Source of the DNA: Naegleria gruberi
Taxonomy: Eukaryota
Assembly (NCBI GenBank): GCA_000004985.1
Contig: GG738852.1
Reading direction: 5' to 3' (one strand)
Length of the DNA: 64,000 nucleotides
Below, piece by piece: positions 3,476 to 47,560 of this stretch. A model generated the notes under the pieces. The model worked only from the letters and a program-made list of their open reading frames with translations, searched no databases and was not told the DNA's origin. How positions within the stretch are numbered: position 1 is the first letter of the stretch; each line of letters begins with the position of its first letter. The position numbers and the translations under genes are program-made.

Positions 3476-6400
3476 ATGAATAAATTGCGTTCTGTTGTGT
3501 CAAAGAAGAAACAACGTTACCAAAAGGAAGGTTTTGACCTCGACTTGACGTACATTAGTGATCGTGTCATTAGGTAAGTTTCTACTCGAAAGACAATAGT
3601 TTCGAATAAAGAATAGTATGGGTTTCCCTTCAACAGGTGCAGAAAGTTTGTACAGAAATCCTTTGGAAGAAGTAAAATCCTTTTTCCAGTCCAAACACGA
3701 CGACCACTACAAGATTTATAATTTGTGTTCGGAGAAGAATTATGATCCTAGTGTATTTTCGAATCGTGTTGCTAGGTAAGTTTCGAATAGAATAATAATA
3801 GTAACACCTTTTATAGATTCCCATTTGATGACCACAATGCTCCACATTTTTCATTAATTTTGGATTTTTGTGAAGGTGAGTTTAAAGTTTCGAATTGTTT
3901 GATGGAATTGTATAGATGCTTGTCGTTACTTGATGGAAGATAAACAAAATACTCTTGCTGTTCACTGTAAAGGTAAGTCTAAATTGCTATGAATTCATTC
4001 CATTGACATGTGACTTTAGCCGGCAAAGGAAGAACTGTATGTTTTTCTAATAGTATTTGAAAATTAATGTTTTAACAACAAAAAATATCCATTAACAATT
4101 ATCATCAACACACAACCGATATTTCATCATCAATCATACCAATTATGTCATTGCACAAATTTCTCTCTCAAATAGGGTACTATGGTTTCATCTTTGATGA
4201 TTTATACTGGTTTCTGCTCAACTGCATCCGAAGCTATGGAATTATTTGGTAGAATCAGATGTAATGATTCTAAAGGTGTGACTATTCCTTCTCAGAAGAG
4301 GTAAGTTTTGATGCATTTTTCTTCATTTACTAAAGATTTTCAATGTTAATCATTCGATCATTGTGAAATCTCTGAAATAGATATGTTCAATATTTTGAGG
4401 AATGTGTTGTTCATAGAGGAATGAGATTTCCAACAAAAGATGCGAAAATTACACTCAAAGCTGTTCATATGAATTCAGTTCCACACTTTGATAGAGATGA
4501 AGGAAGTGATCCATACTTTGTCATTCATCAACCTTTCTATGATAAGGAAACAAGAGATAATTATCGTATGGAAAAGTTATTTGATTATTCGGTAAGTTGA
4601 TCATTTTACATAATTTGCTGAAATTCACACAATTTGTAGCAAAATGAAAAAGTTAAACATTTAAAGAAGGGAGAGGAAGTTTGGATTAAAAATTTGAATA
4701 TTGACCTTTCTGGTGACTTTAGAATGATTTTCTATGATATGGATAAAGTCAAGAAGGATGAAAAAATGTTCATGCTTTGGTTGAATACAAACTTTTTACA
4801 CTTGCACCAACCTTACAATTCTTCCAATTCAATTCCACATAGAAAATTTTTGGGTCCTAATGATATTGTTGTTAGAATTCCAAAAGTTGAATTGGATAAA
4901 GCTGTAAAAGACAAGAAGAATCAAGCATTTGATGCTGATTTTTATGTTGACTTGATTATTGAAGTGAAGGAACCAAGTCAATATTCTGAACCACACAAAT
5001 TTGTGTACAATACACCAGACAGTGGAAAGGAATTGTTTGGAGAAATTCAACAATACGCTAAAACTGAAGCTTCAAGCAAGGAAAAGGAAAAAGCCAGAAA
5101 ACAATACGAACAAGGTAGAGAATTCTTTGCATTGAAACAATATTCCAATGCTGTTACATCTTTCTCGAATGCTATTTTGATTGATAGTGGATTTGAGGAA
5201 GCTTACATGTCAAGAGGTTTAGCTAACATGAATTTGAAACGTTTCCCTGAAGCAATTTACGATTTCACAACTGTTTTGAATATTCTGGCTAAGGGAACTA
5301 CAAGTTTGGGTGAAGATATTCCAATTCAAGATAGTATTACAATTACTTTAAGAGCATATCACTCCAGAGGTAAATGTCATACTAAAATGAAGGAATATGA
5401 ATTTGCCATCAAGGATTATGATAGTGCCACTTCAATTTTAGAACATGCTCAACATATTGGAAACGATGGATGTTCTACCACTACTGTATCCAACAATAAT
5501 CACTCTACATCTCCTTTCACTGATTCACTCTTCCAAACATTCTTTAGAGTTTATCTCGATAGAGGTCTCATTAACGATGCTCTTCAAAAATACTCTGACT
5601 GTATTATTGATTATACTAACTTTATCAAATATATGGATCCACTCTCTGAATCTCTAGTTGTTAAATTGAGAGAAGGTAAAATAACTGCAAACAAGTATGA
5701 ACAATACTTGTTTGAATTGTTCCAAGCCTTTTACAATAAGGCAATTGCTATTGGAAAGGTCGATAATTATCCTAACAAGGAAACTCAAGTATTCCATGAC
5801 TTGAACAAGGCAGTTGATTATATTGAAAAGATGTCTGACCCAATTAACAGTCCAGATGCTCTAGTATTTGGTCAAGTCTACCTTGCCAGAGGTGATAGAC
5901 AAACAGATAAGGAAGCTGCCATTAACGATTTCCTTAAATGTCTCTTATATGATAAGACTAACAGGATAGCTACAAAGAGATTGGCTGTTTTACTCTATGA
6001 ACAAAAGCAGTACAAGAGAGCTGTTCTCTATTTTTCAAAACTCATCAAGGATGAACCACAAAATGTCAAAATGCTTACCAATAGAGCTATTTGTTATTTA
6101 AAATTGGAACTTTATGAAAATGCCATTGTTGATTTTAAGGCAGCTCAGAATTTATCACCTGATACTATGAATTTATATGTACAATGTGCCAGATGCTACA
6201 GAAGAAAACACGAACTCTCAGACCCAGCTCAAATACCTCAAAAAGAATTGGAAGATTGTGAAATTCAATATTCAACAGCTATTGATTATCTTCAAAAGAG
6301 AAAGAAGGCAGCTACTCCATCCACTCCAAGCACACCAACTCTCTCTTCATCCTCAACTATTAAGGACGATGATCTTAAAACTCTCTACTTTGAACGTGGT

Positions 6401-6724
6401 ATGACTAGATTCGCTCTGAAAAAATACGAAAGTGCTATTCTCGATTATAGTCATTGTCTTGAACTCGACCCAAATCATTCCCTAGCTCTCTACAATAGAG
6501 CTTACACTCGTCAAAAATTCTTGAAACAATACGACAAGGCCATCACTGACTATGAACAAGTTCTGACCTTCAATTCATCTGATCTAAAGGCACGTCTTGA
6601 AAAGGGATGTTGCCTCTACTATTTAAAGAAAGATGAAGAAGCAATTATGGAATGGCAATTAGTATTGAAAAAAGATCCAAACAATGAAGCTGCCAAAGTG
6701 TATCTTTCCCAATTAGCTAAATAA
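3476..6724 (+). CDS. PTEN-type lipid/protein phosphatase plus C2 domain, fused to a long C-terminal TPR array (8 exons)
   Basis: Exons 3476..3573, 3617..3775, 3817..3875, 3916..3972, 4020..4036, 4176..4300, 4381..4591 and 4640..6724, all joined in frame by GT-AG introns of 43, 41, 40, 47, 139, 80 and 48 nt. The spliced product reads [42 protein letters not shown]...YKIYNLCSE...FPFDDHNAPHF...LAVHCKAGKGRTGTMV...KGVTIPSQKRYVQYF. This is collinear with human PTEN, including the HCKAGKGRTG P-loop. The last exon holds C2-like sequence followed by many 34-aa TPR-like repeats (e.g. AYMSRGLANMNLKRFPEAIYDFTTVLNI). Confidence 0.85.
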
Positions 6725-14122: not shown

Positions 14123-15298
14123 TCAATCACGATTATGGTGTGTTTTATGGTGTTGATGATGGTCAAGTACTTTTTCATTCATGGATTGGAAATTCATTTG
14201 GATGGAATGAAGGAGAGCTAGTTGTGCTCTTGTTCTGATGAGATTGTGTTGTGGATAGGTAGTTTTGTAATAGGTATCACCGTTGATGTAATCTGTTAGA
14301 AATCTCAATGCCTGCTCAAAGGTAATATACTTGGCACTGAAAGCTAGATATTCAATTTCGATATCTGTGAGGAATTTGTAACCCTCAGAGAGATATCCAT
14401 TGGTAAAGCTTTCGAATATGTCCATTTTGAGATGAATGTTTTGAGTATTTGGATCATCTTCTGTAGATGTGTTACAATACGAACGAATGGCATCTCCAAA
14501 ATCATTCAATACTGTACTGCACATTACAGTGTCAAGGTCAATTAAGCAACATGCCTTATTGGTCTCAGTATCGAATAAAATATTACTTAATTTCGTATCG
14601 TTATGAGTAATTCTCAGTGGAATTTTGTTACTTTCTACCAATTCCCAAAAATCAATCATTTCCTTTCTATAATTTTCCACAATTCCAATTTCATCTTTCA
14701 CTTCCTCCAATCTGTTAACAATATTCCTTTCAATGGCTTGATCAAATTGTTCAAATCTGAATTTAATATTGTGAAATCCAGGTAACACATCCTTAATAAT
14801 GCATTCTCTATTTTCATAGGTGATATTTCCATGGCTCTCAGAAACCAAATCAGAAAGCATATTCTGGAATTTTCCAATCATTTTACCTCCTTCAAACGCC
14901 AACTCTTCCGAATCAGCCTTTTCATGAGTAGTGGTATTTTCTATAAACTTAAACATGGTCCAATATTGAGAGTTTTCCGAATCTTGATTCTCAATCAATT
15001 TGTAAAATAATTTTCCATCATTGATGGTAGGAACAATAGAAAGAGTCTCCCTATCCGGATTTCCTCCCAATTTTGCAATTTTCCCTCTCAAATGTTCAAT
15101 CACGAGGGAAATATTATTCATCATGAGTTGAATGTTTTTAAATATTTTGTGATTCTTTCGTTGGAGAATGTATTTATTGTTCGGAGAGGGAATGTTAAGT
15201 TCTACCAGATAGGTATCATTGATGAGTCCACTCGGAATTGGTTCGATATTTATATTTCCAAGATTTGGACCTAAAAATTGGCTTACGATTTCATTCAT
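14123..15298 (-). CDS. APH-fold phosphotransferase, N-acetylhexosamine 1-kinase (NahK)-like, bacterial-type
   Basis: Single intronless ORF with an A/T-run before the ATG. Motifs IPSGLINDTYLV, ILQRKNHKIF, ITHNDTKLSNILFD (catalytic HxD....N), CLIDLDTVM, FGDAIRSY and RFLTDYINGDTYYK match, as I recall it, the bacterial NahK/LnpB-type kinase family. Confidence 0.7.
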   Translation of the reverse strand: MNEIVSQFLGPNLGNINIEPIPSGLINDTYLVELNIPSPNNKYILQRKNHKIFKNIQLMMNNISLVIEHLRGKIAKLGGNPDRETLSIVPTINDGKLFYKLIENQDSENSQYWTMFKFIENTTTHEKADSEELAFEGGKMIGKFQNMLSDLVSESHGNITYENRECIIKDVLPGFHNIKFRFEQFDQAIERNIVNRLEEVKDEIGIVENYRKEMIDFWELVESNKIPLRITHNDTKLSNILFDTETNKACCLIDLDTVMCSTVLNDFGDAIRSYCNTSTEDDPNTQNIHLKMDIFESFTNGYLSEGYKFLTDIEIEYLAFSAKYITFEQALRFLTDYINGDTYYKTTYPQHNLIRTRAQLALLHSIQMNFQSMNEKVLDHHQHHKTHHNRD

Positions 15299-16677: not shown

Positions 16678-18483
16678 TTAGTAATCATTCCATAATCCAA
16701 TATCCAATTTTTTCTCATTAAGTTCAAATCTTGCACTGTTGTGTCCACAAAGACATTTGCAAATATCATTGAAACAGAATGATTGAATTCCATCAAACAT
16801 ATCTCTTGGAATGATTGGGGAATGATTGGCAATTCCTAGTAAATTTGGAATATCAAAATGCTTTGGAATATTGATATTTAGTGGAGAATCTCTTTCAAGG
16901 TATAAACTAATAATTTGAAGAGCTGTTTCTTTTGTAATTGGTAATTTTCCTGTTTTGAATAGCTCAATATCATACCAAGCTAACATTTGCTCTGGATGGT
17001 AACCTCTTCTTGCAATATCCAAAATTTCTGCATACGCATCTCCTTCTTTTAGTTTGATTGCAACCTCCATTGAAATTTCTTCGCTATTCTTTGAGTCATA
17101 TCTCACAGAATACAAGACAGGAAGGAATATTGTAACAAATTGTTCAATGGTACAATAGAATAACATGCAAGTACCAAAAGGAAAGAAATAGTCAACCAAT
17201 TGGACTATAATATCAATTTGACTAGTAATAATATAAATAAGACAAAAGATGAGTTGGACAACCACTACAGCTAGAGTTTCTTTCTTAATATACCAAATAT
17301 CCTTATCAGTCCTAATAGAAAGAATGACAAATATTGTCTCAATAATTATATAAATAACGGCCTCACATGTAACCAAAATAGAGGTATTCTTCTCCACAGA
17401 ACATCCTCTATCAAATAAAAAGGTTCCTCCATCTACAAAGAAAAGTTTTGTTTCCACAAGCTCATCCGAAACTCCAACTGAGACCCAAAGAGCTACATGT
17501 ATAAAAACAATCAAAATAAGTGCCGGTATTAAGAATTTTGAGCTCAAAAGAAATGAGTAAATTTTGATAAACCTCTTCTTGCGTTCAATGTCCCTGTTTG
17601 ATATTGCAGATGCATTTGTTGTTTTGTTTTCCGAATAAATACTTTGATCATGCATTTCATGTTCATTGCCTAATTCTTTCTGCAATGTAAACAGTTCAAT
17701 TTTTTTCTTACAGAGCTTAAATTTAAAGAAGAGTCTAAAGCATTTGTAAATGGTAGGAAGAAAAATACTTGCAGGAAATAAAAAGTAAATGCTCGAGTAC
17801 AAAATGCATGGAAATGCAGATCTCCCAACTATGAATCTAATACTAAGAATTGATTCAAATATCACATTTCCAGTTAGTGAAAATAATAGAGACAATGGAT
17901 GCCTCTCCTTAATGTGCCTACTCTTCCATTTCCACACTAGGCCAATAAAAGTCAAGAATGTTATCAGTAAATAGATCAAGTAAAATATTGCAGATAGAAT
18001 TGGTGTGAAAATAGTGTCAGGACACAGCCCATAAATCTCTGTAGGCCTCTCCTCTCTCGAATAGCCTCCATTAAACAGAAAAGGATCGCAACTCGTCGCT
18101 ACAGATGCATTATAATTTGGAGTTGTTGAGAGTATGGTATGAAATATTTGGTCCATGTATTCCTTAACTACATGGTCATGCAAGCCTAGATGTTGTGCTA
18201 TTGATTGCACAAACGTATTTTCATTTACAGACGATGATGAAGATGTCAATTCCAAATCATGTTCCGAACAAGTCACAACATTTATCAAAGTACTCATCAA
18301 GGCCACCATTATCAATGTATTTAGAAAAAGCCAGTTAGTTTGTTTCATCTTTTTAAAGCCAAAGTTTATGTTATATTGATGTTGCTGTTGATGTTGTTCT
18401 TCTTTTCGTTGGTGAGTTGATGAAATTGCTTTTGATGTCATTGTGCGTTCATTCTTTTTTTTATGGGATTCAAAAATGTTCAT
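16678..18483 (-). CDS. Seven-transmembrane protein with a C-terminal RGS domain (7TM-RGS)
   Basis: Single ORF. An N-terminal hydrophobic signal-like segment is followed by about seven predicted TM helices (ILSAIFYLIYLLITFLTFIGLVW ... FGTCMLFYCTIEQFVTIFLPVLY). The C-terminal ~130 aa fit the RGS pattern (MLAWYDIELFK....ALQIISLYLERDSPLNINIP....MFDGIQSFCFNDI). Confidence 0.7.
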   Translation of the reverse strand: MNIFESHKKKNERTMTSKAISSTHQRKEEQHQQQHQYNINFGFKKMKQTNWLFLNTLIMVALMSTLINVVTCSEHDLELTSSSSSVNENTFVQSIAQHLGLHDHVVKEYMDQIFHTILSTTPNYNASVATSCDPFLFNGGYSREERPTEIYGLCPDTIFTPILSAIFYLIYLLITFLTFIGLVWKWKSRHIKERHPLSLLFSLTGNVIFESILSIRFIVGRSAFPCILYSSIYFLFPASIFLPTIYKCFRLFFKFKLCKKKIELFTLQKELGNEHEMHDQSIYSENKTTNASAISNRDIERKKRFIKIYSFLLSSKFLIPALILIVFIHVALWVSVGVSDELVETKLFFVDGGTFLFDRGCSVEKNTSILVTCEAVIYIIIETIFVILSIRTDKDIWYIKKETLAVVVVQLIFCLIYIITSQIDIIVQLVDYFFPFGTCMLFYCTIEQFVTIFLPVLYSVRYDSKNSEEISMEVAIKLKEGDAYAEILDIARRGYHPEQMLAWYDIELFKTGKLPITKETALQIISLYLERDSPLNINIPKHFDIPNLLGIANHSPIIPRDMFDGIQSFCFNDICKCLCGHNSARFELNEKKLDIGLWNDY

Positions 18484-18727: not shown

Positions 18728-20491
18728 TTATTCTCTGATTTTCACGTGAGGATGGCTTACATGAACCTGTGTTTTATCTTCGTGTTGCTTCAACAGGCTC
18801 ACAATTTTTGTGTGCCCTTCTGTTAGTGCTATTTCCATTGGTGACTGAATTGTTAATGCTGACCAGAGCTGGCAGACAACTTACCAGCTTTTGGTTGTTT
18901 AAAAAAAGTGTTTCAGAGCCAATAATTTTAAATAGTACTTACTTCATCCTTATTTTGTTATAATGGCTTGTAAGGTGGAGAATACATACATTTTTAAAAA
19001 CCCACTACATAATAGAGCTTTAACATGCTTTGTGTTCCTCAACTTACATCCTTAAATAATCGTAAACATCATGTTGATGTGATTATCACATACGAAACTT
19101 ACAGTCTGCATGTTGTTAAACATCATCACACATGCCAGAAACTTACAAACTTTAGGACGTAAAAACAACATTTAACGGAAAATGGACTTACTTGCTTAAT
19201 AATATCACACAACATTATTTACATCAACATCTTAAATACATACTCCTCTTTTAACATCAACTCCTACAACATTCACTAATAATTGAGGAGTCTTCATCAA
19301 TGCATCCATGTTCAATGTTAAAAAAAGCTTACCTCCTATTACATCTTTCAAATGTAAATATTACAAGAAATACTTACATACTAATAATCAAGGTCATTAA
19401 AATTGATTCTTGAAAGCATGTAAAACATACAATCTATGTACATTTAGAAAATCAAATAAGCTGATCACTTACATCCTACATGGAGTGAGATCACTAATTC
19501 ATACTGCATACTTACATACTGGATGGCAAGTGAGTATTCAAATAACGAACATACGTACAGACTTGAATCATTCAAATAATAAGACTATATACATCGAAAG
19601 GTACTCACATACTATCGGATTATTTAAGTGGAGAAAATGGGAGTAACTTACACTCTGACAAATTGTAAAACAAGTTCAAAAGAAGCTCACTTACTCCTTT
19701 GTTGACATCAATCCTTTTTGATTTTAACAATATTTCTACAATGGCTAAATTTTCACTCTTACATGCAACATGAAGGGGACTCTTTTGATCTGTTAGAATG
19801 TCTTCAATCCATGCTACATACATACTAAACAAAAGGAAGAGACAATGGAACAATACGAATTGGAAATGAAACTTACGTAGTTCTATTAGATTGAAAGTCA
19901 ATTTTCCTTGTCAAAAAATTGAAATTGCTTACATTCTTATTACAATAATATTACAGAATAACAAGGATTGAATCTTACATTTTCCTATTTGGAATACTTC
20001 ATGTAATCTTGATTCTGAACTTACATACTAACATTATTATTTCTGATATATTGTTCAAATGCCTAAGACAACTTACTCCTCTATTTACATCAACTTCATC
20101 CCTTTCCACCAATAGTTTTACTATATTGACATGCCCGAACGTACATGCTGTATGTAAGGGAGACTTTTGAGAGATTAATTTCTGGTCTTTCCTCAAACTA
20201 CACTTACATTCTAATCACGCCAAATTCAATTCCTCAGATTATTGATAACTACGTACAGCCTTTTTAATAGAATCCAGTAAATTTTGATATCCACAAACTT
20301 ACTCCTTTATTTACATCAATTCCTTTTATTCCCAACAGAAATTGTACATAATCTGTATCACCTCTCTCACAAGCCTCAATCAATAATGTTTTCCCTTCAA
20401 CTTCATCATTGATAAAGCTTTCAAAATTCCGAATCTGACAAAATTGATGAAAGTTTCCGCTTCTAAGAATATTGAATGCCTTTTGAGCCAT
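18728..20491 (-). CDS. Ankyrin-repeat protein; predicted 27 exons and 26 introns, including chains of 3-nt micro-exons
   Basis: Clear ANK exons:
- 20303..20491: MAQKAF...GKTLLIEACERGDTDYVQFLLGIKGIDVNKG
- 20077..20163: SPLHTACTFGHVNIVKLLVERDEVDVNRG
- 19695..19781: SPLHVACKSENLAIVEILLKSKRIDVNKG
- 19244..19291: TPQLLVNVVGVDVKRG
- 18728..18844: SPMEIALTEGHTKIVSLLKQHEDKTQ...stop
Each is followed by GTAAGT or GTATGT directly after the ..DV(N/K)xG codon (phase 0). The intervening sequence parses entirely into GT-AG units of 39-55 nt separated by exons of 3, 6 or 15 nt. Exons (615 nt) plus introns (1149 nt) sum exactly to the 1764-nt span. The gene call is solid. Micro-exon usage is inferred from splice signals only. 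Confidence 0.65.
18845..19694 (-). other. Micro-exon linker 3 of the ANK gene: 17 introns (39-55 nt) and 16 small exons
   Basis: Small exons, in minus-strand order:
- AGT 19652..19654
- TAT 19609..19611
- TCT 19559..19561
- TAT 19516..19518
- GAT 19473..19475
- ATT 19431..19433
- TAT 19378..19380
- GAG 19333..19335
- 48-nt half-ANK exon 19244..19291
- CAA 19192..19194
- TTT 19147..19149
- ACT 19103..19105
- GAT 19048..19050
- 15-nt exon 18990..19004
- GATGAA 18943..18948
- CTG 18885..18887
Intron lengths are 40, 40, 47, 40, 40, 39, 50, 42, 41, 49, 42, 41, 52, 43, 41, 55 and 40 nt. Confidence 0.5.
19782..20076 (-). other. Micro-exon linker 2 of the ANK gene: 6 introns (49, 40, 43, 50, 52, 40 nt) and 5 micro-exons
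   Basis: Micro-exons TAT (20025..20027), GAAAAT (19979..19984), AAT (19933..19935), AACTAC (19877..19882) and TAT (19822..19824). Each lies directly between an AG acceptor and a GTAAGT, GTAAGA, GTAAGC or GTATGT donor. The last intron ends ..caaaag, and the next exon starts exactly at SPLH. Confidence 0.5.
20164..20302 (-). other. Micro-exon linker 1 of the ANK gene: 3 introns (43, 46, 44 nt) and 2 micro-exons
   Basis: Minus-strand parse:
- intron gtaagt..aaaaag (20260..20302)
- micro-exon GCT (20257..20259)
- intron gtacgt..gattag (20211..20256)
- micro-exon AAT (20208..20210)
- intron gtaagt..caaaag (20164..20207)
The next exon then starts exactly at SPLH. Confidence 0.5.
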
Positions 20492-20582: not shown

Positions 20583-21185
20583 CTATTCAATTTCGCTCTT
20601 CAATTTTTCATAGATTGTCAAGGCTACTGAATCAGAGTCAATCTTATCCTTTCCCTTGCAGAGTGATTTGGCCATTTCCTTATCAACCTCCACGAGAAGA
20701 AGTTTATGTCTCGATTTACCTCCTCTATCTAAAGTTACTCTTGATTTTGAAACTCCCAAAACACCTGATACGTAATCACATAATTCCTTGTTGGCTTCTC
20801 CTTCTTTTGGTGGTGCAGCAATGTGTACTCCAATTTCTTCATCATTAATATTAGCTATTTGACTTGATGAGCTGTTAGGCTTAGCCAATATTGTCAATCG
20901 GATTGAATAGGGTAAATTTGCAGAGGCAATACTAATTGATTTTGGAATGGCAGTGCTGCTGCTACTTGATGAATTGCTACTACTGGCACTGCTGCTACTT
21001 GTTTCCGTCTTTTTCTTAGGAGCCATGATGGTAGTGAATGACGATGAATTAAATCTTTGATATGAACAGTGAGTGTGATATTCTGAGAGTGAACTAATCG
21101 GTGGTGAATAGATTAATGATGATGAGCCAATAATAATATTGTTATGTTTCTGATGAAGATGTCTTATCAAGCCTCTCTTCAACAT
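20583..21185 (-). CDS. DUF167/YggU (UPF0235) family protein with an S-rich N-terminal extension
   Basis: Single ORF with a genuine ATG. The C-terminal ~90 aa ([72 protein letters not shown]) fit the DUF167 pattern (AkP.ak...i......l.v.iaApp.eGeAN.eL..yl...Lgv.ks.v.l..G..SR.K). Confidence 0.65.
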
Positions 21186-46111: not shown

Positions 46112-47389
46112 CTAGAAAAGTGACTTGATGGCGTCCCAAGCTCCAGAGAAAACGTCAGAAACCTTTTCAGCAACCTTAAGGTAGGTTTCACTTTGTTGCA
46201 TCTTGAAAGCAAAGATTGAAAGTCCATACAGAGCACTCAAATGAATCAATGATCCAAAGAATAATTTTGTGGCATTGTCATAATCAACATTCTTCTTGAA
46301 AACAATGGATGGTTTGACAAGATAATACCAATTGATTGGAGTAGAAACAACAGCAAACCACCATGGAACAACTCCAAATGCAGGGAGAGCCCAACAAATT
46401 GGGAATAAGGCAAGTGAGTGAATTAATGATTGAGTTGCAGCAGCTTCTGGATTAGAAATTGAAAGCATCTTATAACCAGCTTTACCATAATCTCCTCTAC
46501 ATTTATATGAAATTGCCATAAAGTGAGAAATTTGCCACAAATACATGGATCCGAACATGAACAATCCTGTCACCAAGAGTTTTGTATTATAATCGGAAGT
46601 AGAAGGAAGTAAACCATCAAGAGGAGAAGGTTTTGGAGAAAGATGTTGTGTTAGAGAAAGTGGTAACATGGCTGCAGTGACACCCATAAGTGGAGGTAAA
46701 CTACCATTCAATGTTCCTACCCAAGTATTAATCCAATGGAGTGGTTTTGTTGGTGTATAAACACAAACATAGAGTAATAAATTAGCAAGACCAAGTAAAG
46801 CAGTCTCCTTGTTTGTATACTTGTTTAAAATATAGGTACCAGCAGCACCAGTAATAACGGCTTGAGTAATAGCATGAGTTACACTAATTTTGTTTCTTGG
46901 GAGTGGTCTATTGAATGTTCTACTCATCAATTTATCCCTCTCAATTTCAATAATTTCATTAAAACTATTAGCAGAAGCAGACTGTAAGAATGTTCCGACA
47001 CATAATCCGATCACACTTGTTGATGATGAAGATGACGCATTAATGAGTTGGAGTATCTCATCTCGTTCCGCCGAAATTAAATGGATTTTGTTTGCAGCAT
47101 AATAACCACCAGCTGCTGTGAAAACAACAAGAGCACTCAATCTAGTCTTCCACAATTCATAGTAACATCTCATATAGTGTCTGAAGGCTCCGACCTTCTT
47201 TTCCTCTATGATTGGTTTTTCAATTGGATTTTCAATAGCTGGTTCTACAATAGCAGCCTCACTTTTCTTCATTTTAATTTCGTGGAGAGATTCTTCAACT
47301 GGACAAACATCCTTTGTAGCCAATGAAAAATTAGCCTCGGAGGCTGGTGTTTCAGGCGATAAAGATTTGTTATCTTGTTGTGTTGCCAT
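46112..47389 (-). CDS. COX10: Protoheme IX farnesyltransferase (heme O synthase, COX10; UbiA family)
   Basis: UbiA-type motif NEIIEIERDKLMSRTFNRPLPRNKIS, multiple TM helices and WKTRLSALVVFTAAGGY. The genuine ATG at 47389 follows an A-run (MATQQDNK..); the track start at 47401 is TTG. Confidence 0.85.
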   Translation of the reverse strand: MATQQDNKSLSPETPASEANFSLATKDVCPVEESLHEIKMKKSEAAIVEPAIENPIEKPIIEEKKVGAFRHYMRCYYELWKTRLSALVVFTAAGGYYAANKIHLISAERDEILQLINASSSSSTSVIGLCVGTFLQSASANSFNEIIEIERDKLMSRTFNRPLPRNKISVTHAITQAVITGAAGTYILNKYTNKETALLGLANLLLYVCVYTPTKPLHWINTWVGTLNGSLPPLMGVTAAMLPLSLTQHLSPKPSPLDGLLPSTSDYNTKLLVTGLFMFGSMYLWQISHFMAISYKCRGDYGKAGYKMLSISNPEAAATQSLIHSLALFPICWALPAFGVVPWWFAVVSTPINWYYLVKPSIVFKKNVDYDNATKLFFGSLIHLSALYGLSIFAFKMQQSETYLKVAEKVSDVFSGAWDAIKSLF

Positions 47390-47560
47390 TTTTTTATGCA
47401 ATTTTTTTGACCTTTTTAAATTCTTTCAAGCAAATTTAGTAATTTTGGTTGCTGACTGAATTTTCATTCGTTACTACTGGATTCTTCTGAAATGGCGTCA
47501 TTAATAATGATTGTTTCGAATTATGCTTCAGTCAATTAAAATAATCAACATTTAGAGGCT

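Follow-up and report, generated by a model that had tools for sequence, protein, structure and literature searches.

Predicted chains of minimal introns and single-codon exons in an ankyrin-repeat gene of Naegleria gruberi

Layout of the gene and its reading frame

We analysed a stretch of 64,000 nucleotides (nt) from Naegleria gruberi (contig GG738852.1 of assembly GCA_000004985.1; in the following, the window), in which the minus strand from 18728 to 20491 carries an ankyrin-repeat gene. An independent re-parse divides this interval into 27 exons and 26 units that run from GT to AG, with no leftover bases (Table 1). The units are 39-55 nt long (n = 26, median 42.5, mode 40), they all end in AG and all have a G at position +5 of the donor, the hexamer being GTAAGT in 16 units, GTATGT in four, GTACGT and GTAAGC in two each, and GTGAGT and GTAAGA in one each. 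Among the 23 small internal exons, 18 have 3 nt and three have 6 nt, and the remaining two measure 15 and 48 nt; with 615 nt of exons and 1149 nt of introns, the parse accounts for all 1764 nt of the genomic sequence. The original prediction, which was made from the sequence alone, had arrived at the same numbers: its counts of units, donors and AG ends were reproduced to the base, and so were its set of exon sizes, the order of the eighteen 3-nt exons and its length sums.

The units form chains at four inter-repeat positions, with 3, 6, 9 and 8 introns, respectively, always in phase 0 and after ...DVNxG. The last two chains lie on either side of the 48-nt exon and are together referred to as the third array. 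The small exons hold 45 codons, that is, 135 of the 615 coding nt; the micro-exon class (22 exons of 3-15 nt, all multiples of three) contains a stop in none of its members.

The assignment to the ankyrin repeats in the original prediction is borne out by Pfam: the model of 204 amino acids (aa) matches Ank_2 with 115.5 bits (E = 1.7e-33), the 159-aa model without micro-exons reaches 81.1 bits, and Ank is matched with 76.5 bits and three repeats. The third array, with its 48-nt exon, accounts for most of the 34-bit gain in Ank_2 of the full model. In the 204-aa model, three good ankyrin repeats are followed by a degenerate region and then by one last repeat, which the third array sets apart from the rest by 36 odd residues. 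The 87-nt exons encode 29 aa, about 4 below the 33 aa of an ankyrin repeat. In the nearest homologues there are 7-8 residues between ...VN and SPLH, often with a Y-SPLH end, an ending that the last TAT micro-exon of array 2 would supply. On visual inspection, the N-terminus (MAQKAFNILRSGNF...) does not resemble a signal peptide. A homologue search with the 204-aa model returned distant generic ankyrin proteins only, with no orthologue or gene model.

The pattern of splice-like signals exceeds what is expected by chance. The predicted concentration of GTAAGT on one strand was found as described: 16 of the 26 minus-strand occurrences in the whole window fall within this gene of 1.76 kb, where the plus strand has none. 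A pattern of three chained donors has two matches in the gene and 0 in 100 dinucleotide shuffles, and the pattern AG-N3-GT[AG][ACT]G[TCA] occurs 20 times in the gene and 16 times in the remaining 124 kb (both strands), none of these 16 matches joining two introns. Inside the arrays, an AG followed after 3 nt by a donor was found 18 times, whereas 2000 dinucleotide shuffles gave 0.53 on average and never more than 5. The profile of spacings between AG and donor shows 18 cases at k = 3, four at k = 6, and at most two at any other k.

We see similar regularities in the reading frame. All 23 internal exons are multiples of three. Note that each of the three 6-nt exons has only one possible acceptor, and that a multiple of three also results for the 15-nt and 48-nt exons when the first permissible AG is taken; the chance that the five internal exons which are not 3 nt long would all be multiples of three is (1/3)^5 = 0.004. 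There is no stop among the 45 codons of the small exons (p = 0.04; stops make up 7% of the trinucleotides of unit interiors), and a length divisible by 3 is found in only three of the 26 units (p = 0.011). If a unit were retained, a frameshift or a stop would result in 25 of 26 cases, unit 20 being the exception. Such frame regularities would not be expected if each array were one long intron.

The micro-exons themselves are biased towards nAT, with T at position -1 in 15 of 18 and TAT occurring five times (with codon usage as the reference p is about 1e-4, with control donors 2.5e-5); neither the control introns described below nor the codon usage has such a consensus. In exons 1 and 2 the ankyrin motif D-V-N is coded as GAT|GTAAAT, which a single transition would turn into GAT|GTAAGT, and this is a possible link to nAT. 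At the TAT micro-exons (20028, 19825, 19612, 19519 and 19381, minus strand) the junction AG|TAT|GTAAGT contains a second donor-like sequence, GTATGT, which starts from the acceptor G, 4 nt upstream of the donor used in the parse. At the tandem acceptor TAGGAG (19333-19338, minus strand) the distal AG would give an exon of zero length abutting the GTAAGC of unit 18; this is the sole k = 0 site in the arrays. A donor-like CAT|GTAAGC also lies within the last exon (18755-18769, minus strand), with AG-N6 before it and an AG 59 nt downstream. The use of this GTAAGC at 18760 for an extra downstream ankyrin repeat found no support: it would exchange the C-terminus for a 35-aa tail, which has no match to an ankyrin profile.

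Table 1. Predicted features of the ankyrin-repeat gene, listed 5' to 3' on the minus strand (positions in the window; L125 is the contig of a second strain)
Feature	Position	Strand	Basis or comparison
Whole coding region, ATG to TAA	18728..20491	-	1764 nt genomic; 615 nt if 26 units removed; Ank_2 115.5 bits
Exon 1, 189 nt (63 aa), N-terminal cap and first ANK repeat, end ...IDVNKG	20303..20491	-	L125: 1 substitution/189 nt
Unit 1, 43 nt, GTAAGT...AAAAAG	20260..20302	-	L125 donor GTAAGC
Micro-exon GCT (Ala)	20257..20259	-	same in L125
Unit 2, 46 nt, GTACGT...ATTAG	20211..20256	-	same in L125
Micro-exon AAT (Asn)	20208..20210	-	same in L125
Unit 3, 44 nt, GTAAGT...AAAAG	20164..20207	-	acceptor context AAG, L125 CAG
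Exon 2, 87 nt (29 aa), ANK repeat SPLHTACTFGHVNIVKLLVERDEVDVNRG	20077..20163	-	L125: 0 differences/87 nt
Unit 4, 49 nt, GTAAGT...GTTAG	20028..20076	-	L125: 43 nt, 6 substitutions, indels -7 and +1
Micro-exon TAT (Tyr)	20025..20027	-	same in L125
Unit 5, 40 nt, GTAAGT...AATAG	19985..20024	-	L125: 3 substitutions, AG retained
6-nt exon GAAAAT (Glu-Asn)	19979..19984	-	single AG available, no parse freedom; same in L125
Unit 6, 43 nt, GTAAGA...ATAAG	19936..19978	-	parse
Micro-exon AAT (Asn)	19933..19935	-	same in L125
Unit 7, 50 nt, GTAAGC...AATAG	19883..19932	-	L125: 46 nt via 4-nt deletion
6-nt exon AACTAC (Asn-Tyr)	19877..19882	-	single AG available; L125 AACTAT, synonymous
Unit 8, 52 nt, GTAAGT...TTTAG	19825..19876	-	parse
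Micro-exon TAT (Tyr), would yield Y-SPLH	19822..19824	-	YSPLH motif in 3/6 nearest homologues
Unit 9, 40 nt, GTATGT...AAAAG	19782..19821	-	parse
Exon 3, 87 nt (29 aa), ANK repeat SPLHVACKSENLAIVEILLKSKRIDVNKG	19695..19781	-	parse and Pfam
Unit 10, 40 nt, GTAAGT...GTCAG	19655..19694	-	parse
Micro-exon AGT (Ser)	19652..19654	-	parse
Unit 11, 40 nt, GTAAGT...GATAG	19612..19651	-	parse
Micro-exon TAT (Tyr)	19609..19611	-	parse
Unit 12, 47 nt, GTGAGT...TCAAG	19562..19608	-	parse
Micro-exon TCT (Ser)	19559..19561	-	parse
Unit 13, 40 nt, GTACGT...TCCAG	19519..19558	-	parse
Micro-exon TAT (Tyr)	19516..19518	-	parse
Unit 14, 40 nt, GTAAGT...TGTAG	19476..19515	-	parse
Micro-exon GAT (Asp)	19473..19475	-	parse
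Unit 15, 39 nt, GTAAGT...CATAG	19434..19472	-	multiple of three; in-frame stop if retained
Micro-exon ATT (Ile)	19431..19433	-	parse
Unit 16, 50 nt, GTATGT...ATTAG	19381..19430	-	parse
Micro-exon TAT (Tyr)	19378..19380	-	parse
Unit 17, 42 nt, GTAAGT...AATAG then GAG	19336..19377	-	tandem acceptor TAGGAG (19333-19338)
Micro-exon GAG (Glu)	19333..19335	-	parse
Unit 18, 41 nt, GTAAGC...TGAAG	19292..19332	-	no detectable similarity to 5' halves of ANK exons
48-nt exon TPQLLVNVVGVDVKRG, 3' half of ANK repeat (truncated exon)	19244..19291	-	similarity to 3' halves of ANK exons
Unit 19, 49 nt, GTATGT...TTAAG	19195..19243	-	holds putative exon-end relic
Putative relic GATGTTGATGTAAATA (D-V-D-V-N), ANK exon end inside unit 19	19216..19231	-	15/16 nt as end of exon 2
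Micro-exon CAA (Gln)	19192..19194	-	parse
Unit 20, 42 nt, GTAAGT...TAAAG	19150..19191	-	sole unit in frame without stop if retained
Micro-exon TTT (Phe)	19147..19149	-	parse
Unit 21, 41 nt, GTAAGT...TGCAG	19106..19146	-	parse
Micro-exon ACT (Thr)	19103..19105	-	parse
Unit 22, 52 nt, GTAAGT...TTAAG	19051..19102	-	parse
Micro-exon GAT (Asp)	19048..19050	-	parse
Unit 23, 43 nt, GTAAGT...TGTAG	19005..19047	-	parse
15-nt exon TGGGTTTTTAAAAAT (WVFKN)	18990..19004	-	parse
Unit 24, 41 nt, GTATGT...ATAAG	18949..18989	-	parse
6-nt exon GATGAA (Asp-Glu)	18943..18948	-	single AG available
Unit 25, 55 nt, GTAAGT...AAAAG	18888..18942	-	parse
Micro-exon CTG (Leu)	18885..18887	-	parse
Unit 26, 40 nt, GTAAGT...TTCAG	18845..18884	-	parse
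Last exon, 117 nt including TAA, final ANK repeat SPMEIALTEGHTKIVSLLKQHEDK... and tail	18728..18844	-	parse

Comparison with other introns, a second strain and the neighbouring genes

As controls we took 17 short introns of the same window, obtained by an open reading frame (ORF) joining screen and by reading the PTEN and biotinidase-like genes. The controls are 40-54 nt long (median 45), 14 of 17 have the donor GTAAGT, and no consensus is seen on the exon side. Units have 39.5% T and 14% G, whereas the exons of the ankyrin gene have 38% A and 22% G; the controls are T-rich and G-poor like the units. In length, donor type and composition, the units thus match the control introns. The PTEN gene has introns of 43, 41, 40, 47, 139, 80 and 48 nt. 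With these seven introns removed it gives an uninterrupted ORF of 937 aa (943 aa in the N. fowleri annotation). The 139-nt and 80-nt introns contain no internal donor-like motif and are removed in one step, so the species is not limited to introns of about 45 nt. While the match in length claimed in the original prediction holds, its conclusion that the units are therefore spliceable is incomplete in view of these two introns.

The units resemble each other no more than shuffled sequences or unrelated introns do. Tandem Repeats Finder found no tandem repeats in the array, Rfam gave no match to the units at E<=1, and folding of the 26 units (mean z = 0.01) gave no mirtron-like hairpin. Neither elsewhere in the window nor in 42 kb of N. 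fowleri and Willaertia DNA could we find sequences similar to the units, and the same 42 kb (heme O synthase loci, in which the gene order differs and the ankyrin locus is not covered) contain no intron chains. A metagenome scan for chains of three donors yielded nothing comparable among 120 loci, the matches being (GTAA)n microsatellites and exact tandem repeats. In Joint Genome Institute (JGI) metagenome contigs (L022, L023, L038 and many others, many of them from few related projects), long imperfect arrays of (GTAA)n or GTAAGTAAAG mimic chains of GTAAGT donors.

A HMMER search with exon 1 among 1.84 billion representatives found one near-identical protein, a 74-aa ORF that runs from the ATG into unit 1 on L125, a 3.7-kb ENA metagenome contig. 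L125 covers the first 626 nt of the gene, that is, 7.5 units, and has the gene order MFS, DUF167, ANK, as in the window. The architecture is therefore present in an independent assembly and is not an assembly artefact. Only one of 276 positions (0.36%) is substituted in the large exons, compared with 13 of 264 (4.9%) in the unit interiors, where there are also three indel events, of -7 and +1 nt in unit 4 and of -4 nt in unit 7. The local neutral yardstick is 3.6% (third codon positions of DUF167), and the MFS exons differ by 0.4%. The unit interiors thus appear to drift like neutral, non-coding DNA, and the 4-nt deletion means that unit 7 is not coding. The difference between large exons and interiors argues for purifying selection on the exons, and hence for a gene that is alive.

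Every GT and AG is retained over the overlap. One of 48 donor hexamer positions has changed (GTAAGT to GTAAGC, a variant found elsewhere in the array), none of the 14 positions of the acceptor AGs, and one of the 24 micro-exon positions (TAC to TAT, synonymous), so that there is no non-synonymous change. The seven complete units in L125 measure 43, 46, 44, 43, 40, 43 and 46 nt, none divisible by 3. Unit 4 (20028-20076), with its 6 substitutions and 2 indels, lies far above the other units and may reflect a single complex mutational event. In the DUF167 (YggU-like) gene (20583-21185, minus strand), the alignment to L125 2449-3027 has 24 gap columns, and the L125 product has 192 aa versus 200 aa; judging from these product lengths, the gaps probably fall in the Ser-rich N-terminal part. 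Third codon positions account for seven of the nine substitutions in this gene.

Upstream of the ankyrin gene, 92 nt from its start, is the DUF167 gene, and 245 nt downstream of its end follows an orphan ORF of 601 aa; the neighbouring genes are mostly long, intron-poor ORFs. The 601-aa ORF (16678-18483, minus strand) is intact and has several hydrophobic stretches by eye; no homologue of it, nor the protein itself, was detectable in a database of 5.8 billion proteins. An intronless gene at 14123-15298 (minus strand) encodes a 391-aa protein of the aminoglycoside/choline kinase-type phosphotransferase (APH) family. The ORF at 46112-47401 is 100% identical to the heme O synthase of Naegleria gruberi (N. 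fowleri 72%, Willaertia 57%), which identifies the window as nuclear DNA of this species. In the PTEN gene (3477-6724, plus strand) the PTEN phosphatase and C2 domains are fused to a C-terminal TPR array, and this fusion is also annotated in N. fowleri (L121 961-4426). A break in synteny is seen between 3.5-52 kb of the window and L121 1-13.7 kb of N. fowleri: there, PTEN-TPR, a DEP protein, POLE2, heme O synthase and a CN-hydrolase (biotinidase-like) are adjacent, whereas in N. gruberi PTEN and the DEP gene are about 43 kb apart, with UBR1 and the ankyrin gene among what lies in between.

Proposed splicing of the chains and their possible origin

Those parts of the original prediction that are testable by sequence were all borne out, and from this indirect evidence we infer that the units are spliced one by one and that the micro-exons are included; serial splicing of tandem minimal introns is probably the main route, although we hold this with moderate confidence only. 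The locus would then be a live ankyrin gene in which each inter-repeat intron position holds a head-to-tail chain of minimal U2-type GT-AG introns and not one intron. Since the control introns lack a consensus on the exon side, the splice signals would be intronic, and each unit of 39-55 nt would be recognisable by intron definition. As there is no room for two spliceosomes on neighbouring 40-nt introns at the same time, removal would have to be sequential; the simplest order would be 5' to 3' during transcription, each donor meeting its own acceptor first. Each removal would leave 3 nt (or 6, 15 or 48 nt) between the AG and the next GT in the mRNA. As no small exon begins with GT, no 5' site would be regenerated, recursive splicing could not remove the codons, and they would stay if the units are used.

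The predicted product has 204 aa, and the codons of the micro-exons, mostly Tyr, Asn, Asp and Ser, would lengthen the loops between the ankyrin repeats. Inter-repeat loops of ankyrin repeats form the target-binding face. With full inclusion, the predicted junction would read GATGTAAATAAAGGA-GCT-AAT-TCTCCCTTACATAC for array 1 and GTAAATAGAGGA-TAT-GAAAAT-AAT-AACTAC-TAT-AGTCCCCTTCATG for array 2, and the peptides expected to span the junctions are VNKGANSPLH, VNRGYENNNYYSPLH and VNKGSYSYDIYETPQLL.

Several observations limit the case for serial splicing. We found no other 3-nt exons in the window which would show that the machinery handles them. The branch-point motif T[TC][AG]A[ACT] does not discriminate in this AT-rich DNA: 19 of 26 units and 14 of 17 controls have it, yet so do 20 of 26 antisense units and 47% of random windows. 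At a divergence of 2-5% about 4 changes are expected in the internal signals and 2 were seen, which is no proof of selection. The loop residues add about 5 bits to the Ank_2 score, and poly-Gly spacers do the same. No transcript, expressed sequence tag or gene model of the locus was found in the databases searched, exon 1 matching only the 74-aa genomic read-through ORF. Ten spliced isoforms were also absent from a collection of 15 billion proteins, in which N. gruberi reads seem to be unrepresented, so that this is an absence of data and does not show that the gene is silent. Public RNA-seq of N. gruberi exists under ENA PRJEB23822 (PMC6142364).

The most serious alternative is block or partial skipping, which we consider rather unlikely. 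Here, the intervals of 139, 295 and 850 nt, or large parts of them, would be removed by a donor pairing with an acceptor far downstream of it, the main mRNA would lack most or even all of the micro-exons, and the product would have 159 aa from a coding sequence of 480 nt; the internal sites would be minor alternatives or recently abandoned. The single-step PTEN introns of 80 and 139 nt without internal donors make such skipping possible, and they put array 1 (139 nt) within the proven range. Moreover, every skip product would be in frame and the 159-aa product would still be an ankyrin protein (Ank_2 81 bits). What skipping leaves unexplained is why 26 strong donors each have an AG 3 (or another multiple of 3) nt upstream, why unit lengths are held at 39-55 nt in two strains despite indels, and why the small exons are free of stops and units with lengths divisible by three are scarce. 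Unused internal sites should decay at the interior rate of about 5%, and if introns are defined during transcription, a usable acceptor becomes available to the first donor 43 nt on. Furthermore, the longest intron seen in the window has 139 nt, with no evidence for the splicing of an 850-nt intron, and without the micro-exons the 29-aa repeats would be about 4-5 loop residues short.

Alternatively, the gene could be dead or silent, a decaying ankyrin pseudogene whose chain is a fossil without present function. The missing gene model and transcript-derived protein, the truncated repeat with the exon relic, and the 36 odd residues that split off the last repeat would all fit. We nevertheless regard this as improbable: between the strains the large exons are far better preserved than the unit interiors with their indels, the five larger exons (about 175 codons) are all open where 7% of the trinucleotides are stops, all 52 splice dinucleotides are intact, and 16 of 26 donors are a perfect GTAAGT. 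Least probable of all, to the point that we give it hardly any weight, is a recent tandem duplication of intron plus codon or a serial introner-type insertion with 3-bp target duplication, either of which would amount to a minisatellite or transposon array, for although the nAT bias with its five TAT exons and the 13-mer TTAGTATGTAAGT, found with close variants at three junctions, could be a remnant of a founder junction or a target-site preference, Tandem Repeats Finder was negative, the similarity of the units is at shuffle level, they match nothing elsewhere in the window or in the 42 kb of related DNA, there are no terminal inverted repeats or structure, and neighbouring micro-exons are not the identical pairs that target-site duplications would be.

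Another reading is that the chain acts as a combinatorial device for loop diversity. Since all small exons are multiples of three and introns of at least up to 139 nt can be spliced, any pairing of a donor with a later acceptor of its array stays in frame, which would allow up to 2^2 x 2^5 x 2^16 isoforms. They would differ only in the length and the Tyr/Asn/Asp/Ser content of the inter-repeat loops, and one gene would give a population of binders. We think it doubtful in the extreme that the chain is such a device, and no less doubtful that it gives such a population; the variation would be analogous to that of the Schistosoma micro-exon genes (MEGs) or Dscam, but from single codons.

How could such chains have arisen? 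A possible, tentative answer, to which we assign less than even chances, is erosion, the chain being the remnant of an ankyrin-repeat gene that was once much longer. Its dead 87-nt repeat exons would lose length, always in frame, until they were just large enough to keep two introns apart, and the flanking introns would be kept by purifying selection, each still needing removal. The 48-nt exon resembles the 3' halves of exon 2 (p = 0.0005), of the exon-1 repeat (p = 0.009) and of exon 3 (p = 0.03), and for the relic in unit 19 the local alignment has z = 4.5, with 0 of 200 shuffles reaching its score. This half repeat, the relic and the decay-like size series of 48, 15, 6, 6, 6 and 3 nt would fit erosion. 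Erosion needs no creation of signals and would account for dissimilar units as well as for the uniform phase 0. Proliferation, by duplication of intron plus codon or by insertion with a 3-bp target duplication, predicts similar units, and this similarity is absent. Against erosion it counts that there are two relics only and that no trace of a lost exon half is seen in unit 18, which has no detectable similarity to the part missing from the 48-nt exon. A derivation of unit 17 from an exon end was likewise unsupported. The nAT consensus of the micro-exons is explained by neither erosion nor proliferation.

Relation to known systems and significance

As the original prediction had supposed, we found no description of chains of single-codon exons in the literature searched; intron arrays in Naegleria were not found there either. 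U2-type introns and micro-exons are each known, but not in this arrangement. The analogy to the Schistosoma MEGs that had been proposed holds as a functional likeness only, N. gruberi being a heterolobosean amoeba and not an animal. In both cases the coding sequence is cut by many very short exons of 3n length that can be skipped in frame, with possible protein variation. However, the exons of MEGs have 6-36 nt, make up most of the coding sequence, are separated by ordinary, often long introns and encode secreted proteins with a signal peptide, whereas here we see mostly 3-nt exons that abut introns of the species minimum, a cytosolic-type ankyrin protein and no homology.

In recursive splicing, known from Ubx and other long introns of Drosophila and from the recursive-splicing (RS) exons of vertebrates, a 3' splice site also lies beside a strong GTAAGT and removal is stepwise. 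But ratchet points have zero nt between AG and GT, leave nothing in the mRNA and divide introns of tens of kb; in the ankyrin arrays the spacing is 3 nt in 18 cases and zero only once (the tandem acceptor TAGGAG), with steps of about 45 nt. Isolated 3-nt micro-exons (RPS24, MAP4K5, PICALM) are truly spliced in, so that single-codon exons are not mechanistically forbidden. In those genes, one to three micro-exons lie between long introns in exon-definition genomes, while here there are up to eight in a row between minimal introns. Introners (Micromonas, Aureococcus, fungi, dinoflagellates) also involve the gain of many introns, and their target-site duplications can supply bases adjacent to the splice sites, but they form recognisable multi-copy families, whereas the 26 units share splice signals only. 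Finally, in the stwintrons of fungi several splicing reactions clear one interval as well; stwintrons are nested, one intron interrupting a splice signal of another, while the units described here lie side by side with their signals intact.

If spliced as read, the gene would represent a new extreme of gene architecture, with up to eight consecutive single-codon exons between introns of the species minimum. It would mean that pure intron definition works with a 3' splice site and the next 5' splice site 3 nt apart, and that an ordered or alternating assembly of spliceosomes is forced. The gene could serve as a natural substrate for the order and fidelity of splicing, as productive expression would scale with about the 26th power of the efficiency per intron. 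The exon sizes of 87, 48, 15, 6 and 3 nt within one gene suggest that dead repeat exons may erode to an irreducible codon while the introns survive. There is no gene model containing exon 1 in the searched protein collections, even though reference proteins of N. gruberi (e.g. P0007) are present in them; genes of this kind may thus be missed, and similar ones could hide in other intron-definition genomes.

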